DNA from: a bacterium
Lineage (GTDB): Bacteria; Patescibacteriota; Andersenbacteria; UBA10190; CAIZMI01
Assembly: GCA_030647555.1 (NCBI GenBank)
Contig: JAUSJG010000013.1
Location: 12,086-76,085 of the forward strand
DNA length: 64,000 bases
Direction: 5' to 3'
In this document: positions 3,101 through 48,770 of the stretch, one piece after another
Position numbering within the stretch: position 1 is the stretch's first letter
How the letters are laid out: each line of letters opens with the position of its first letter
Notes under the pieces: model-generated
Told to the model about the DNA's origin: nothing
Seen by the model: only the letters and a program-made list of their open reading frames with translations
Databases searched by the model: none
Made by a program: the position numbers and the translations under genes

Positions 3101-3223
3101 CCAAACCCCAAAGGCGCTGTCCTCATTGCGGATCCAGAGTTGTTTTCTGTTGAGGATGGGGTTTGGGAGCCCGAAAAGGAAGCAGTTCTTGTTTGGAAAA
3201 AGTAGAAATTAGATTGAGACCCC

Positions 3224-3373: not shown

Positions 3374-3405
3374 GAACTGGTCGTTCTGAAAATAAAGTTA
3401 GCGAA

Positions 3406-3444
3406 ATCAGTGACCGACCCCGGCGTGCGGGGACGGTCCCTGAT
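3406..3444. repeat. Palindromic element family 2 (GACCGTCCC type): atcagtgaccgaccccggcgtgcggggacggtccctgat
   Basis: Identical copy at 7389-7427; related copies 21361-21398, 38601-38639, 48678-48715, 59907-59944. Confidence 0.75.
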
Positions 3445-3550
3445 TTGTCGGATGCACCATTGACTTTTGTCTGTTTTGGGGGTAGGTTGGACGTAAGAAG
3501 CAACCGAAAACTTCCTGAAAGGGTTGTGGCCGAAAGGTCTAGGTTGCTTT

Positions 3551-4254: not shown

Positions 4255-4845
4255 GTGGTCGATCTAGTATTTCCTCCGCCCGCCAAATGGTGGTGTGGCA
4301 TGGCTGATTTCGATTTCTCCCAGGCGTTGAAGGGGCATGAGGCAGTCTTCCGAAAGACTTTCGATCGTGGCGGGCGCCACAAAGCATTTTGTTGGACCCA
4401 CACGCTGGCCGTGGGTACGTCAAAGTATTTGCCACACGGGTATTATTGTGGCCAAGCGTGTTTTGTCGAGCGTGCTTGGAAAACCTGGGGTAATTTCCGT
4501 TTAGCGTGTTTTTGGACTGGGGAAAAGACGGCCAAAAATGTCTATTATGGAATCGTACCTGAAAGTTTTGTTCTCATCCCGTCAATGCATTACTTGAGAC
4601 GAGTAGTAACCAGTCTCGCTGAAAGGCTTGAGTTTAAAATCGTGCGGGGTGGCGCAGATTTTTTAGAGGCAAAACAAGTTCGAATAAAGGTGGAGAAAGA
4701 TAGATTTCACTTGGGCTTTGGTTGGAAACGTTACACAAAAGTTTTTCAAGATGGTCTAAGGGAATTAGAGGTAACTGCGCAGGAAGCAATGCACACCGGT
4801 TACCACTTGAGTATTTTTCGTAGTCACAATATTCTTCGCAAGTAG
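4255..4845 (+). CDS. Hypothetical protein, cassette-type gene (contains CFWTGE motif)
   Basis: ORF with GTG start; own promoter module upstream and terminator + palindromes downstream. Confidence 0.5.
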   Translation: MVDLVFPPPAKWWCGMADFDFSQALKGHEAVFRKTFDRGGRHKAFCWTHTLAVGTSKYLPHGYYCGQACFVERAWKTWGNFRLACFWTGEKTAKNVYYGIVPESFVLIPSMHYLRRVVTSLAERLEFKIVRGGADFLEAKQVRIKVEKDRFHLGFGWKRYTKVFQDGLRELEVTAQEAMHTGYHLSIFRSHNILRK

Positions 4846-4852
4846 AAGTCAT

Positions 4853-4878
4853 CCGCGTCATCGAGACGCGGTTTTTTT
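4853..4878 (+). terminator. Intrinsic terminator ccgcgtcatcgagacgcgg + T7
   Basis: Hairpin and T-run immediately after stop of 4255-4845. Confidence 0.55.
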
Positions 4879-4880
4879 AT

Positions 4881-4932
4881 TTTTCTCATCAGAGAAAAAT
4901 AATCCCCCATAGCTCATCAGCGCGCGCGGGTG
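4881..4932. repeat. Variable palindrome (ttttctcatcagagaaaa) + degenerate 34-bp CAT element (aatcccccatagctcatcag...)
   Basis: Same architecture as 7322-7374, 28296-28351, 38001-38056, 48569-48623. Confidence 0.55.
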
Positions 4933-5727: not shown

Positions 5728-5945
5728 TGTATCGATATGTCGATACAAAAGAACACTGATTGTTTGTTTTTACTGATTTTTAAAAATCCAACCTTGCTCT
5801 TGTATCGATATATCGATACACAAACAGGCAAAGGCGATATATTTTTTTGCGTTAATTAAATCATGTTGCGCCTGTATCGATATATCGATACACAGATGTT
5901 TGTATTGTTGTAAACGAGTTGCTCTTGTATCGATATGTCGATACA
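5728..5945. promoter_or_regulatory. Four copies of 20-bp palindrome TGTATCGAYATRTCGATACA (5728-5747, 5801-5820, 5873-5892, 5926-5945), each in a promoter-like context (ttgcNc-palindrome-tacaNN)
   Basis: Exact palindromes seen directly; last copy abuts start codon of the TrpR-like gene. Confidence 0.6.
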
Positions 5946-5953
5946 ATTGAGGC

Positions 5954-6364
5954 ATGGCAAAAGTAAAAACGCAAAAATTTACAGCGGAAGAAAAAGAAAA
6001 GTTTGTGAAAAATCTTGGTGCGACAATTCTGAAATATGATAAACCAGATAAAATGGAAAAGTTTTTGCGTGATTTTCTTACGCCAAGTGAAATTATTATG
6101 TTGGCAAGAAGAATCCAAATTGCCGATGGCCTTATAAAAGGAAAAGGGTACCGCGAATTGCACGAAAAATACGGGATTGGAATGAGTACAGTTCAGCTGG
6201 TTGATAAGTGGTTGAGGGTGACAGTTGAAGATTACAAATACGCGCCACCTGGAAAACGCGACAAGAAGCAGAAGAAAACACGTGGCTATTCAAGACGTAG
6301 CGGTATCCAGCTTTTTCTTTCTTATTCAACTGGTCCCAATCCGTATTTTATTTGGCAAAGCTAA
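5954..6364 (+). CDS. TrpR-like YerC/YecD family DNA-binding protein
   Basis: EIIMLARRIQIADGLIKGKGYRELHEKYGIGMSTVQLV matches TrpR_YerC/YecD HTH region. Confidence 0.7.
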   Translation: MAKVKTQKFTAEEKEKFVKNLGATILKYDKPDKMEKFLRDFLTPSEIIMLARRIQIADGLIKGKGYRELHEKYGIGMSTVQLVDKWLRVTVEDYKYAPPGKRDKKQKKTRGYSRRSGIQLFLSYSTGPNPYFIWQS

Positions 6365-6366
6365 TT

Positions 6367-6432
6367 TGTATCGACATATCGATACAAGTCACCGTGTTGG
6401 TTGATATTTTTATGTATCGACATATCGATACA
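6367..6432. promoter_or_regulatory. Two more copies of TGTATCGACATATCGATACA (6367-6386, 6413-6432) downstream of TrpR-like gene
   Basis: Exact palindromes seen directly. Confidence 0.6.
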
Positions 6433-6477
6433 TCATTGCGTGATGCGGTTGAGTGAATTTTTTTAAACTAAAACTTG

Positions 6478-6524
6478 TTGACACAATATTATAATAATGC
6501 TTAAATGAACCGTTGTTCTTTGTC
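6478..6524 (+). promoter_or_regulatory. Conserved promoter-leader module: TTGACA-17-TTAAAT-gaac-cgttgttctttgtc
   Basis: Hexamers with 17-nt spacer; homologous to 4178-4225. Confidence 0.5.
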
Positions 6525-6644
6525 ATTTTTGCCAAGCGTTTGGCTGGACTTTGAACAACATTAACGTCTTTTTCGTCGGTCGTACGTCGAGCCGGGCCCT
6601 GCAAGCGAGGGTTTTTCTCTGACCAGACCGCGAACGGGAGGTGT

Positions 6645-7274
6645 GTGATGGGACATGCGAACGCGGGAACAGATTTTACGATTGATCAAGTCATGGCTAT
6701 TCGGGAGATGGAGAGAAAGTTAGCGCGACAAGGATTTCGCGGTGCTCGAAAAGAGGTTCAAGATGCTTTCGAAGTGTTGCATTACCGTATTAAGGCGTTG
6801 AAAAAACACCGCTTGGTGGATTGTTCTAAGGGGGCGTCTATCCCTGATGGATGTTTGATTCTTGAAGAAGATCAGTTACCGGGAAGAAAGAAAGACGAGA
6901 TGATCCTGAGTGTTCGTTTTATGGAGCTTTGGATTCCGGAAGCCAGGATGCCGGGAATATACAGCAGAGCCGCATTGCTTGAGGAGCTTCAACAAAATGA
7001 ATCAGCGGTACTTCCGTTGAGCGTTCTCGATCACGATCTTCTTTGGCAGCACGGGATTTTCTACGGGCTCATTCCCGATCAAGGTAGCATCTTATTCTGG
7101 GGTACGATCTTTCGCGATGTAAATGGGATTCCAACAGTAAAAGGGTTGTCTCGAAAGCGAGCGGACATTTATCTGCGAGATTTCCCCATCGACAGCTTGC
7201 GGAGTACTGTGCCACAGCGCGAATATGTTGCGCTTTATGTCAACGCTCCAATGATTGACACCGGTGTCTGGTAA
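6645..7274 (+). CDS. Hypothetical protein, FWGT-motif family (paralog of 20738-21304)
   Basis: Shared segment LL..I...LIP....(I/V)(L/F)FWGT..R...G with 20738 protein; atypical codon usage. Confidence 0.5.
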   Translation: MMGHANAGTDFTIDQVMAIREMERKLARQGFRGARKEVQDAFEVLHYRIKALKKHRLVDCSKGASIPDGCLILEEDQLPGRKKDEMILSVRFMELWIPEARMPGIYSRAALLEELQQNESAVLPLSVLDHDLLWQHGIFYGLIPDQGSILFWGTIFRDVNGIPTVKGLSRKRADIYLRDFPIDSLRSTVPQREYVALYVNAPMIDTGVW

Positions 7275-7374: not shown

Positions 7375-7388
7375 ATTTATTTTTTTAA

Positions 7389-7427
7389 ATCAGTGACCGA
7401 CCCCGGCGTGCGGGGACGGTCCCTGAT
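7389..7427. repeat. Palindromic element family 2, identical to 3406-3444
   Basis: Exact repeat. Confidence 0.75.
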
Positions 7428-7473
7428 TTGTTCGCGTATTCCTATTTCATCAATCATCATTCATAATCACCTT

Positions 7474-8055
7474 ATGATCGCCTCTCTCACTGGCACAATT
7501 GAACACGTATCAATGGACTCTGTTGTTATGCAGGTGAATGGGATTGGTTATCGTGTTTATACTCTGGCTTCGGTTTTGAGTGTGCTGAAGGTTGGCGAGA
7601 AAATTACGATGAAAACATATTTAAGTGTACGGGAAAATGATTTATCGCTTTATGGGTTTCAGAATCCGCGTGAGCTGGCTTTCTTTAAATTGCTTTTGCA
7701 GGCGCCGGGGATTGGGCCCAAGACCGCCTTGAACGTGATGGCAATTGCAACGGTCGATACTTTGATTCGCGCTGTCGCTTCCGGTGATGTGACGCTTCTG
7801 ACAAAAGTTTCCGGAATCGGCAAAAAAACGGCGGAAAGAATTGTGGTTGAATTAAAAACAAAACTGGAAAAAGAACATCCGGAACTTTCAGGGAAGGGGC
7901 CGAGTGTTCACTCGGATGTTATATCGGCGCTTTCAAGTTTGGGCTACAGCCCAATTCAGGCGCGGGAAGTGGTGCGGCAGTTGCCGGAAGAATTGAAGGA
8001 TGCGGAAGCGGGCATTAGAGCGGCGTTGAAGATTTTGGGAAGCAATAAGAAATGA
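7474..8055 (+). CDS. ruvA: Holliday junction branch migration complex subunit RuvA
   Basis: MIASLTGTIEHV... OB fold, HhH motifs (GIGPKTA, GIGKKTAERI), C-terminal domain. Confidence 0.9.
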   Translation: MIASLTGTIEHVSMDSVVMQVNGIGYRVYTLASVLSVLKVGEKITMKTYLSVRENDLSLYGFQNPRELAFFKLLLQAPGIGPKTALNVMAIATVDTLIRAVASGDVTLLTKVSGIGKKTAERIVVELKTKLEKEHPELSGKGPSVHSDVISALSSLGYSPIQAREVVRQLPEELKDAEAGIRAALKILGSNKK

Positions 8056-8190
8056 ATTTGAAATTTGAAATTTTTAATTTGAAATCAATTTGAAAGGATT
8101 AAATTTGAAATATCTAAAACAGCGTTTTCAAATTAAAACATTTAGTTATTTCAAATTGATTAAAAATTTCAAATTTCAAATTAAAAATTG
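8056..8190. repeat. Long AT-rich hairpin (aatttgaaatttgaaatttttaatttgaaatcaatttgaaa ... inverted); near-identical copy at 36080-36212, partial at 54521-54555
   Basis: Inverted arms read directly; likely terminator/MITE after ruvA. Confidence 0.6.
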
Positions 8191-8198
8191 ATGAAATA

Positions 8199-20409: not shown

Positions 20410-20540
20410 CAAAAATCCCAATGACCAAACCCCAATGTCCAACAAAAACCCAATTATCAAAATTCCAAAGTTGCGATTTTTTTTGGTTATTAAAATTTTT
20501 GAATTTTGTTGGGCATTGGTCATTGGGGTTTGGGATTTTG
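20410..20540. repeat. Long hairpin element (tcccaatgaccaaaccccaatgtccaacaaaa ... ttttgttgggcattggtcattggggtttggga); family copies 24997-25125, 32453-32605, 53893-54027, 57531-57660
   Basis: Inverted arms ~32 bp; same arm sequence after rpoC, ftsK, ychF, uvrC, uvrA. Confidence 0.65.
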
Positions 20541-28259: not shown

Positions 28260-28295
28260 TCCCCGGGTCCAGCAATGGATCCCGGGGATTTTTTT
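28260..28295 (+). terminator. Intrinsic terminator tccccgggtccagcaatggatcccgggga + T7
   Basis: Hairpin and T-run. Confidence 0.6.
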
Positions 28296-28351
28296 GTTGC
28301 CCATCGCAATGGACAACAATCCCCCATAGCTCATCAGAGCGACGGGGGATG
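28296..28351. repeat. Variable palindrome gttgcccatcgcaatggacaac + canonical 34-bp CAT element aatcccccatagctcatcagagcgacgggggatg
   Basis: CAT element identical to 38023-38056. Confidence 0.65.
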
Positions 28352-28519
28352 TGTCAATTAACAAAGCTTTAGCGAAGTGGGGGGTGTTTTCTGAAATTTA
28401 GTACATTTTTTTCATGCGATTGTCGTTTCAGTTTTTCTATAACAAGATAGAAAAACTGAAACGAGTAGGTGTAAAGAAGTTTTAAAATATATTAGGGATT
28501 CTCCTGATTGGAAGTTGTA

Positions 28520-36048: not shown

Positions 36049-36079
36049 AATAGACTGTTATTGATATATTAAGATAATT

Positions 36080-36212
36080 AATTTGAAATTTGAAATTTTT
36101 AATTTGAAATCAATTTGAAAGATATAAATTTGAAATACCGAAAACAGCGTTTTCAAATTATGATATTAAATTATTTCAAATTGATTAAAAATTTCAAATT
36201 TCAAATTAAAAA
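36080..36212. repeat. Long AT-rich hairpin, near-identical to 8056-8190
   Basis: Direct alignment. Confidence 0.65.
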
Positions 36213-36297
36213 TTGGGTTGTCTTTATCTGACAACAAAGTTGTATTACATAAAATGGCTAATATGAGCCATAAATAGAGCGGGTAAATACCCTCCTA

Positions 36298-48540: not shown

Positions 48541-48770
48541 CGCGACCACCTCGGTCGCGATTTTTTTATTGCCCATCGGAATGGGCAATAATCCCCCTTA
48601 GCTCATCAGAGCGACGGGGGATGTTGCCTTGTTTTGTATCGATTATATCGATACAAACGGAAGATTGCTTACACGAAATCGGTGACCGACCCTGACCGCA
48701 GGGACGGTCCCCGATTAACTTCTCAAATCCTTATACTATATACCAAATACCATATACAAATCTAAATACA
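48541..48770. repeat. Repeat nest: terminator repeat (48541-48567), palindrome attgcccatcggaatgggcaat + CAT element (48569-48623), TGTATCGATTATATCGATACA (48635-48655), family-2 palindrome (48678-48715), gtatat-family fragment (48721-48770)
   Basis: Five different repeat families juxtaposed within 230 bp. Confidence 0.65.

Follow-up and report, generated by a model that had tools for sequence, protein, structure and literature searches.

The locus and its palindromes

A 64-kb stretch of DNA from a bacterium of the Andersenbacteria (Patescibacteriota; GenBank assembly GCA_030647555.1, contig JAUSJG010000013.1, positions 12,086 to 76,085 of the forward strand), here called the window, carries at 5954..6364 on the + strand a gene for a protein of 136 amino acids (aa) with the Trp-repressor fold, as assigned by Pfam, AlphaFold and Foldseek. 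The gene is bracketed by six copies of a 20-bp palindrome. The palindrome has the layout TGTATCGA-YATR-TCGATACA, is two-fold symmetric and is of the TGTA...TACA type found in operators of the TrpR family. Its consensus, TGTATCGAYATRTCGATACA, has six matches with 0 mismatches in the window, at 5728, 5801, 5873, 5926, 6367 and 6413; the four upstream and two downstream copies claimed in an earlier note on this DNA are therefore all present as exact copies. No additional site appears in the window when up to 3 mismatches are tolerated, and 100 dinucleotide-preserving shuffles of the window yielded 0 matches; the sites are thus non-random. The earlier note had also asked whether the motif is dispersed. 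Within the window it is not, as the 10-bp core CGAYATRTCG is limited to the six sites that flank the TrpR-like gene. The half-site TGTATCGA (8 nt) occurs 14 times against an expectation of 1.6, with 12 occurrences in the six copies and the remaining 2 at 48635-48655.

The copies differ in their surroundings. The most distal upstream copy (5728..5747, TGTATCGATATGTCGATACA) lacks a TTG -35-like element at the register seen with the other upstream copies. The second (5801..5820, TGTATCGATATATCGATACA) has TTGCTC one base 5' and ends in TACACA, which is without the conserved final T of a -10 box; it is probably a decayed duplicate of the proximal promoter-operator unit. The third (5873..5892, TGTATCGATATATCGATACA) has TTGCGC on its 5' side and likewise ends in TACACA. 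The fourth and proximal copy, the putative operator (5926..5945, TGTATCGATATGTCGATACA), fills the spacer of a putative promoter and overlaps its -10 box; 8 nt lie between this copy and the ATG at 5954 (the earlier note counted 9). Past the gene, the first downstream copy (6367..6386, TGTATCGACATATCGATACA) begins 3 nt beyond the stop codon and the second (6413..6432, TGTATCGACATATCGATACA) follows it closely. The centre of the copy at 6367 is the reverse complement of the centre of the copies at 5728 and 5926; a single asymmetric central base pair thereby makes the downstream copies inverted relative to those two.

Some generalizations made from the sequence alone need to be narrowed. Start-to-start spacings of the six copies are 73, 72, 53, 441 and 46 bp, so that the proposed upstream periodicity of about 70 bp holds for two of the three upstream intervals but not for the third. 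The -35-like TTGC(T/G)C attributed to every upstream copy is found one base upstream of those at 5801, 5873 and 5926, but not of that at 5728. A -10-like box formed by the 3' end of each copy has the conserved final T at the proximal site (TACAAT) but not at 5801 and 5873. Units at 5801, 5873 and 5926 share 47 nt at 68-74% identity (repeat family D15). These units seem to have arisen by tandem duplication of a single promoter-operator unit, and only the proximal one appears to be intact.

What had been taken for a seventh copy, at 48635..48655, is not a copy of the 20-mer. It is a 21-bp variant, TGTATCGA-TTATA-TCGATACA, whose centre is 5 nt instead of 4 through one extra central base. It lies between convergent genes and is flanked by two unrelated repeat families, of neither of which it is a member. 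Whether it serves as a binding site is uncertain, given the altered spacing of its half-sites.

The TrpR-like protein

The open reading frame (ORF) at 5954-6364 matches the Pfam family PF01371 (Trp_repressor) with E=7e-12 and 45.6 bits, against a cut-off of 27, over residues 20-95. It scores below the cut-offs of the NCBIfam models TIGR01321 (TrpR equivalog; 29.2 bits vs 67.25) and TIGR02531 (YerC/YecD, HisR; 30.7 bits vs 42.2). The label TrpR/YerC-like, used previously, is therefore appropriate for the fold and the Pfam family but not for membership of either narrower group. These three models are the only matches of the window protein, and no nuclease, transposase or other catalytic domain was found in it. 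The window holds only this one TrpR-family gene.

A family profile built from 36 members matches the Protein Data Bank (PDB) entries 3FRW, 3G1C and 3KOR (YerC/HisR-like) at about 1e-15 and Escherichia coli TrpR at about 1e-7. Aligned with E. coli TrpR by hhalign (95.9% probability), LTPSE pairs with LTPDE and GIGMSTVQL with GAGIATITR. TrpR residues T44, R54 and T81 are kept as T43, R53 and T79, and R84 is replaced by L82 (the TrpR sequence used agrees in length with that of 1TRO). The AlphaFold model, with a mean predicted local distance difference test (pLDDT) score of 83.3, has five confident helices in residues 1-95 and a low-confidence tail in residues 96-136; means over blocks of 10 residues are 91-97 for residues 1-90, about 80 for residues 91-100 and 51-59 thereafter. 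The best Foldseek matches in the PDB are the TrpR-operator complexes 1TRO and 1TRR together with YerC-like structures (probability 1.0), and the top 41 matches are all TrpR or YerC-like, with probabilities of 0.99-1.0 and target-normalised template modelling (TM) scores of 0.57-0.71.

An exhaustive HMMER search gave 478 representative clusters at E<=1e-3, two of them below 1e-30, and the named relatives of the family are 'Patescibacteria group bacterium' and 'Candidatus Moranbacteria'. Since close clusters are few, relatives are named from Patescibacteria and both NCBIfam cut-offs are missed, the window protein represents, by sequence criteria, a distinct Patescibacteria-specific subfamily of about 140 aa with a basic tail that carries short conserved motifs. 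This tail (residues 96-136; window 6096-6361) is basic and predicted to be disordered, and its motifs YKYAPPGK and Y-S-x-GPNPYF are invariant in the window protein and two orthologues. In the wider family they are replaced by R-x-x-YP-x-x-F-x-L-x-x-LL. The tail could be an interaction or oligomerisation element.

Geometry of the putative promoter

The proximal palindrome coincides with a putative promoter. A -35 element, TTGCTC (5919..5924, +), matches TTGACA at 3/6 positions with the TTG kept, and stands 17 nt from a -10 box, TACAAT (5942..5947, +), which is composed of the last four bases of the palindrome plus AT and lies 6 nt before the ATG. In TTGCTC-N17-TACAAT the palindrome would thus occupy the 17-nt spacer and supply four of the -10 bases. 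The arrangement TTG-N20-TACAAT-N6-ATG is common to the window and two orthologous loci, as is the distance of 8 nt from palindrome to ATG; the -35-like hexamer is TTGCTC in the window, TTGATA in one orthologue (locus L001) and TTGCGA in the other (L052), each 17 nt from TACAAT.

Where would transcription start? With the usual placing of the -10 hexamer at -12 to -7, position +1 would be A5954, the A of the ATG, and a leaderless mRNA is predicted; the geometry suggests such a start. A TAnnnT box 6-9 nt before the ATG, without a Shine-Dalgarno sequence, is seen at many genes of the window, e.g. 34924(+), 28924(-), 42636(-) and 22637(+), and suggests that leaderless mRNAs are widespread in the source organism. 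Canonical TTGACA-N17-TATAAT promoters are also present in this organism (repeat family D13).

Orthologous and distant loci

Comparison with orthologous loci, which had been named as a check, shows that the palindrome stays with the gene. A 67%-identical orthologue with different upstream neighbours (L001/L002) has the identical 20-mer twice upstream and once just past the stop codon, where the contig ends (positions 3250, 3363 and 3806 of L001). A 53%-identical orthologue (L052) is syntenic, in the order TrpR-like gene, 201-aa gene and RuvA, and has a co-varied version of the motif: TGTATCAATATATTGATACA downstream, a shorter TTTCAATATATTGAAA, and a degenerate copy that ends 8 nt before the ATG. 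The upstream neighbours of the TrpR-like gene in the window and in L052 are unrelated. Two ORFs of about 209 aa flank the window gene; they are not paralogues of one another, and they have no Pfam match above gathering thresholds and no NCBIfam match.

A scan for the 20-mer in one genome per species (596 Gb) gave 48 stretches, with about 2 expected by chance as an estimate. A phmmer search with the window protein as single query gave no homologue among the six-frame ORFs of these 48 genome loci. The family hidden Markov model (HMM) from the deep search, applied to the 48 stretches (8 kb) for the detection of diverged family genes, found two loci that carry distant members. In Kaiserbacteria (L016+L025), two exact 20-mers 433 bp apart bracket the family gene. 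In Paceibacterota ABC1.149 (L019), the 20-mer lies between divergent TTGACA promoters, and two variants of it with changed outer bases, TATGTCGATATATCGACATA and TCTATCGATATATCGATAGA, lie 14 nt before the gene and 2 nt after it. The L019 20-mer is the centre of a 62-bp perfect palindrome (4834-4895 in record orientation, 3106-3167 when reverse-complemented), each arm of which holds TTGACA, so that mirror-image divergent promoters point toward the TrpR-like gene and toward a Band_7 gene.

Bracketing across the family

Is the bracketing of the gene peculiar to the window and its closest relatives? Further loci came from contigs of P0004-P0007, P0152, P0154, P0158 and P0172, and from 11 metagenome loci obtained in a search with a nine-sequence alignment; a metagenome pattern search from three close orthologues gave 600 pattern matches and no relative. 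For each locus the upstream 300 nt were compared with the downstream 200 nt and a shared exact 14-mer or longer was scored; control ORFs were scored alike. Every family locus with usable flanks has its own motif both upstream and downstream of the gene. A shared 14-mer or longer is present in 18/20 distinct family loci and a perfect-arm palindrome in 12/20, against 5/393 and 0/336, respectively, for other ORFs of >=100 aa in the same sequences. The two exceptions are a locus with no more than 30 nt of sequence downstream of the gene and one with an 11-mer plus a mismatch. Across loci of 10-17 kb, no copy of the cognate motif is found outside the two bracket sites.

The motif itself changes from lineage to lineage. 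Bracketing motifs are ATTACGATATTACGTTATATCGTAAT in L053, GTAACAATATAACGTTATATTGTTAC in L054, GATTTCGATATATCGAAATC in L055, TACTATATATCGATATATAGTA in L056, CCATTCATCCATTAATGGATGAATGG in L060, CCGCTATAATTAATTATAGCGG in L065, GCTATCTTTAAAGATAGC in L067, ACTCCCATTAATGATTATATGGGAGT in L068, AACCATATATTAATATATGGTT in L069, TTACCATATAATATTATATGGTAA in L070 and CAATTAATCGATATATCGATTAATTG in L072. A subfamily represented by L057, L058 and L061 has the weakly symmetric GTCCAT(A/T)CAACCACATAAGGAC.

These changes parallel the protein. Sites of the TCGATATATCGA and TCAATATATTGA types go with a recognition helix that starts with (S/T/G)-T-V (STVQ, TTVQ, GTVQ, STVL, STVL, STVE), also in the very diverged proteins of Kaiserbacteria and Paceibacterota; of six proteins with such a start, five have these site types. 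Where the site is of another kind, the helix begins with T-I at that position (STIQ, STIR, QTIT, PTIK, NTIS, KTIS). An exception is L056 (STVL), whose site, TACTATATATCGATATATAGTA, is in a different register. It appears that the site type tracks the recognition helix, as expected of cognate regulator-operator pairs; with about 15 pairs this is suggestive and not a statistical proof. Across lineages, gene and motif both co-occur and co-vary, which is the comparative mark of a cognate pair of transcription factor and operator.

The next downstream gene is convergent in L054, L068 and L072, so the downstream copy there cannot be a promoter operator for a downstream gene.

In L053, L058 and L068, whose motifs are asymmetric at the centre, the copy before the gene and the copy after it form direct repeats. 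Direct repeats raised the question of integron attC or other att sites; this reading was set aside, as no integrase came to notice among the genes called in the examined loci, and the copies are identical and lineage-specific.

A branch consisting of L054, L056, L068 and L072 adjoins ADP-heptose and sugar-nucleotide genes (SIS_2, PfkB, PNK3P, CTP_transf_like, epimerases, glycosyltransferases, transketolase/transaldolase), and in L068 and L072 the regulator gene is antisense within a long same-strand run of sugar-nucleotide genes. Members of this branch may be regulators of cell-envelope sugar synthesis.

The same 20-mer in Gastranaerophilales

The 20-mer also occurs in a second setting. TTGAC(A/T) is found upstream of the palindrome in 35/48 genome matches. 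Of these, 34 are metagenome-assembled genomes (MAGs) from Gastranaerophilales/Melainabacteria or unclassified, mostly rumen (RUG), and have one shared arrangement; the other, a Gammaproteobacteria MAG (L024), matches by chance. In the 34 (within L004-L051, e.g. L005:97-225; also L012, L035, L049 and L050), the palindrome stands 4-5 nt past a promoter of the form TTGAC(A/T)-N17-18 followed by a -10-like hexamer, TATAAT or TATACT in most. A leader ORF of 16-18 aa ending in ...WW(R/C).. follows the palindrome in 32/34, e.g. MKKIVIVNLNRNWWRGLV, and about 180 nt beyond the WW leader is a gene for a conserved 400-aa protein without a Pfam or NCBIfam match.

In the E. coli trp control region, the operator lies at +1 and is followed by TrpL, a leader peptide with tandem Trp codons. 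The Gastranaerophilales loci share with it the promoter, the palindrome at +1 and the WW leader peptide, but the downstream gene encodes the 400-aa protein and not trpE, and the likeness concerns other genomes, not the window. By this analogy the layout looks like trp-operon-style dual control, by operator and Trp leader peptide, of the gene for the 400-aa protein, and it independently marks the 20-mer as a regulatory site of TrpR type close to a promoter. With the identical 20-mer ahead of a Trp-Trp leader in gut Gastranaerophilales, the site is connected with control of the tryptophan type in another phylum, for which a repressor is predicted. No TrpR-family protein from Gastranaerophilales is named among 33 profile matches.

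Four to eight bases beside the invariant 20-mer co-vary and extend the palindrome (ttcct/aggaa, gacct/aggtc, aacct/aggtt, ttctt/aagaa, ctttctt/aagaaag). As the left flank falls between the -10 box and the expected +1, the co-variation is not explained by an RNA hairpin transcribed from that promoter. At gathering thresholds Rfam has no match around the window array or in the Gastranaerophilales leaders; its matches, elsewhere, are tRNAs and RNase P.

Probable autoregulation by the TrpR-like protein

What do the palindromes do? The 20-bp palindromes are probably the cognate operators of the TrpR-fold protein encoded at 5954-6364, which would bind them as a dimer and repress its own synthesis. 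The operator role suggested in the earlier note thus gains support from comparative evidence, as orthologues keep the site and the motif is not dispersed in the window. The dimer probably represses the gene's own promoter at the proximal site by occlusion: as this site lies within the promoter spacer and the -10 box, a bound dimer would exclude RNA polymerase. The three other upstream copies and the two downstream copies would be auxiliary sites. Through them the repressor might be concentrated locally, repression might become cooperative or involve a loop (the distance from the proximal to the first downstream copy is 441 bp), or a roadblock might stop transcription that enters or leaves the gene. 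The 441 bp correspond to 42.0 helical turns in the window, but the distances in other loci are not consistently in phase.

Repression of a regulator gene through an operator at its own promoter is a known kind of arrangement, because 20-bp sites have been reported for HisR and TrpR, including sites upstream of hisR itself (PMC9413887). TrpR and HisR (YerC) bind 20-bp palindromes, the motifs being TGTAcTnGTnnACnAgTACA for TrpR, TGTAnTArnnnnyTnTTACA for proteobacterial HisR and cacTTTAnnnnnnTAAAgtg for Firmicutes HisR (PMC9413887). HisR binding has been validated in vitro, nearly half of hisR genes have a candidate site upstream of themselves, and regulators of the TrpR family often autoregulate; neither an array of several copies nor a downstream copy that is obligatory is described (PMC9413887).

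How closely does the window locus resemble these and other systems? With E. coli TrpR it has in common the fold, a 20-bp TGTA...TACA operator like the window palindrome, and the overlap of the operator with the regulator's own core promoter (putative in the window). It differs from TrpR in an extra basic C-terminal tail of 40 residues, in having six sites, two of them past the stop codon, and in a predicted leaderless mRNA; for E. coli trpR one operator is known, at the gene's own promoter. HisR (Bacillus subtilis yerC, Ruminococcus gnavus HisR) accounts for the closest solved structures by sequence (3FRW, 3G1C and 3KOR, as above) and also has a 20-bp palindromic operator. However, the Firmicutes HisR motif is unrelated to the window palindrome, HisR is <100 aa and has no tail, downstream sites are not described for it, and no histidine genes are near the window gene. 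The looping repressors LacI (O1/O2/O3), GalR and DeoR offer a parallel in that an operator at the promoter is joined by auxiliary ones, both upstream and some hundreds of bp downstream; the lac O1-O2 distance is 401 bp, comparable to the 441 bp in the window. Their fold is unrelated, and the auxiliary sites in the window flank the regulator's own gene and not a target operon. An autoregulated TrpR-family repressor with a 20-bp palindromic operator is thus already known. The novelty lies in the subfamily and the array of six copies, but most of all in the architecture of site, gene and site throughout the family.

Several observations weigh against simple autoregulation. One operator suffices for a simple autorepressor, and precedent in the family explains neither the four copies before and two after the gene nor the universal presence of a downstream copy. 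The motif of the L057/L058/L061 subfamily is only weakly symmetric. Some sites lie inside longer perfect palindromes (62 bp in L019, 40 bp in L065), which exceed the contact of a dimer. TrpR Arg84 contacts both tryptophan and DNA, and the corresponding position is Leu in the window protein, so that recognition details and the effector may differ from those of TrpR. A consensus promoter scan called no promoter at the palindrome sites, because TTGCTC, a weak -35 element, matches TTGACA at 3/6 positions. In addition, the family HMM found no TrpR-family gene in the 8-kb stretches around the Gastranaerophilales sites.

Alternatives to autoregulation

A first alternative is that the palindrome is a mobile or self-propagating element, comparable to repetitive extragenic palindromes (REPs) or miniature inverted repeat transposable elements (MITEs), that has been amplified locally, with the gene a bystander or a domesticated partner of the kind represented by the REP-associated tyrosine transposases (RAYTs). 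RAYT genes are flanked by their REP sequences, and a gene with its own palindrome on both sides would fit this arrangement as well; the likeness to RAYT/REP extends to a single-copy gene whose product is thought to recognise the flanking palindrome. The source genome is rich in other intergenic hairpin repeat families, and the 48635 variant lies in a convergent spacer between two such repeats. Several sites extend to perfect palindromes of 26-62 bp, and the units at 5801, 5873 and 5926 look like tandem duplicates.

Of the other genomes, only one lends support to mobility, JBAZWX01 (Paceibacterota SO_2017_GW1_42), and its sites also count against autoregulation. The 20-mer is present on four separate contigs (L007:2640-2790, L037:7080-7160, L043:4300-4390 and L045:6530-6700), the copies in L007, L043 and L045 have similar flanks, which suggests a larger repeated element, and no family gene was detected in the 8-kb stretches of the four loci. 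At least two of the four copies are between convergent genes, a REP-like behaviour. Other nearby palindromes with a CGATATATCG/CGATATGTCG core (GTGGCGATATGTCGCTAC, GACTCGATATATCGAGTC, GTAGCGATATATCGCCAC) are carried by L007, L037 and L045, and L043 has none.

Against mobility stands the confinement of motif and core to the flanks of the gene, which leaves local amplification, the alternative raised in the earlier note, without support in the window: the palindrome is not dispersed, with six copies at the gene and one variant in 64 kb. The restriction to two bracket sites in the loci of 10-17 kb agrees with this. The motif differs from one protein lineage to the next, and very diverged proteins with recognition-helix residues in common go with identical motifs. 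Both the spacing from the ATG and the overlap with the -10 box are conserved. The protein consists of the TrpR fold alone, and has no HUH/Y1 transposase domain or nuclease domain. The 20-mer had no match in the viral contigs scanned, and in Gastranaerophilales it occupies one fixed promoter position, with a single match per retrieved stretch. A mobile or self-propagating palindrome is, on balance, quite unlikely.

A second alternative accepts that the protein binds the sites and is best treated as a variant of the autoregulatory explanation. The site-gene-site module might serve mainly as a roadblock or insulator, or as a nucleoprotein landmark that is centromere-like or nucleoid-organising. 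The downstream copy is universal, even with the convergent next gene of L054, L068 and L072, and in L068 and L072 the gene is antisense in its long sugar-nucleotide run. The absence of further copies within 10-17 kb, the six copies in the window, and a conserved, disordered and basic C-terminal tail whose short motifs could mediate bridging also agree with such a role. But the overlap of proximal site and promoter, conserved in the window and two orthologues, is alone enough for autorepression, the same 20-mer is at a promoter and does not bracket a gene in Gastranaerophilales, and no partition ATPase was noted among the neighbouring genes examined. A role mainly of this kind seems improbable, to about the degree that mobility does.

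Could the palindromes act as RNA? Hairpins serving as 3' stabilisers or terminators and as 5' untranslated region hairpins, in place of protein-binding DNA sites, are very improbable. Every copy can fold into a stem of 9 bp with a loop of 4 nt, the RNA fold of 6355-6445 has -25.9 kcal/mol (z = -2.5), the first downstream copy comes directly after the stop codon, a terminator scan flagged 6387-6366 on the minus strand, and the Gastranaerophilales flanks co-vary so as to extend the palindrome. However, no U-tract follows 6386 or 6432 on the + strand and the stem is A+T-rich with 3 G-C pairs, features that are not those of an intrinsic terminator; the proximal copy is upstream of the predicted start and so would not be transcribed from the gene's own promoter; the co-varying left flank in Gastranaerophilales is outside the RNA; and a terminator has no reason to match a promoter element exactly or to co-vary with a recognition helix. 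No Rfam family was found, and the sub-threshold miRNA-like hairpins that appear at an E-value threshold are caused by the palindromes. A replication origin or terminus was discarded, as GC skew is uniformly positive across the window.

Wider significance

Autoregulation through the proximal operator would leave the constant downstream copy to be accounted for. A more far-reaching proposal is that this TrpR-like family forms self-contained site-gene-site cassettes whose main targets are the flanks of their own gene, acting as looped or roadblocking insulators or in a REP/RAYT-like spreading partnership, and not as metabolite-sensing regulators of other genes. This is doubtful at present. If it were true, each member would be labelled with its own site, and hundreds of readable protein-DNA specificity pairs would be available from one small fold. 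Regulator and probable operator can be paired from sequence alone, as the roughly 20 loci drawn from the family of 478 representative clusters indicate. This gives a testable catalogue of orthogonal repressor-operator pairs with a DNA-binding core of about 95 residues (136 aa in all), of use for a recognition code of the TrpR fold and for the building of regulatory parts. The obligatory downstream copy goes beyond textbook autoregulation and suggests control by looping or by a roadblock in genomes that are very compact and have many genes that seem to be leaderless.

To our knowledge, almost nothing is known of transcription control in Patescibacteria (the candidate phyla radiation, CPR). A literature search found no paper that links Trp repressors, or this TrpR-like family, to Patescibacteria (CPR).

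Other repeats and a conserved non-coding stretch

The window has at least 10 other intergenic repeat families, many of them hairpins, and all are unrelated to the TrpR palindrome. Examples are found at 3404-3448, 7387-7431, 28287-28352, 48559-48624, 20413-20538, 8055-8192 and 36077-36214. Types include AAATCAGTGACCGACCCCGGCGTGCGGGGACGGTCCCTGATTTGT, a unit composed of a T-run, a hairpin and CCCCCATAGCTCATCAGAGCGACGGGGGATGT, and CCAAT/ATTGG-rich inverted repeats.

Between the downstream palindromes and the next gene (about 208 aa) is a non-coding stretch, 6478-6647 in the window and L052:2348-2529 in the syntenic orthologue, that begins with TTGACA. It has no Rfam match, and folding is uninformative with two sequences. 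The stretch may be a structured leader or a small RNA. It is better conserved between the window and L052 than is the protein encoded after it (27% identity), with the blocks GTTGTTCTTTG, AGCGTTTGGC and ACCAGnCCGnnAACGGGAGGT.

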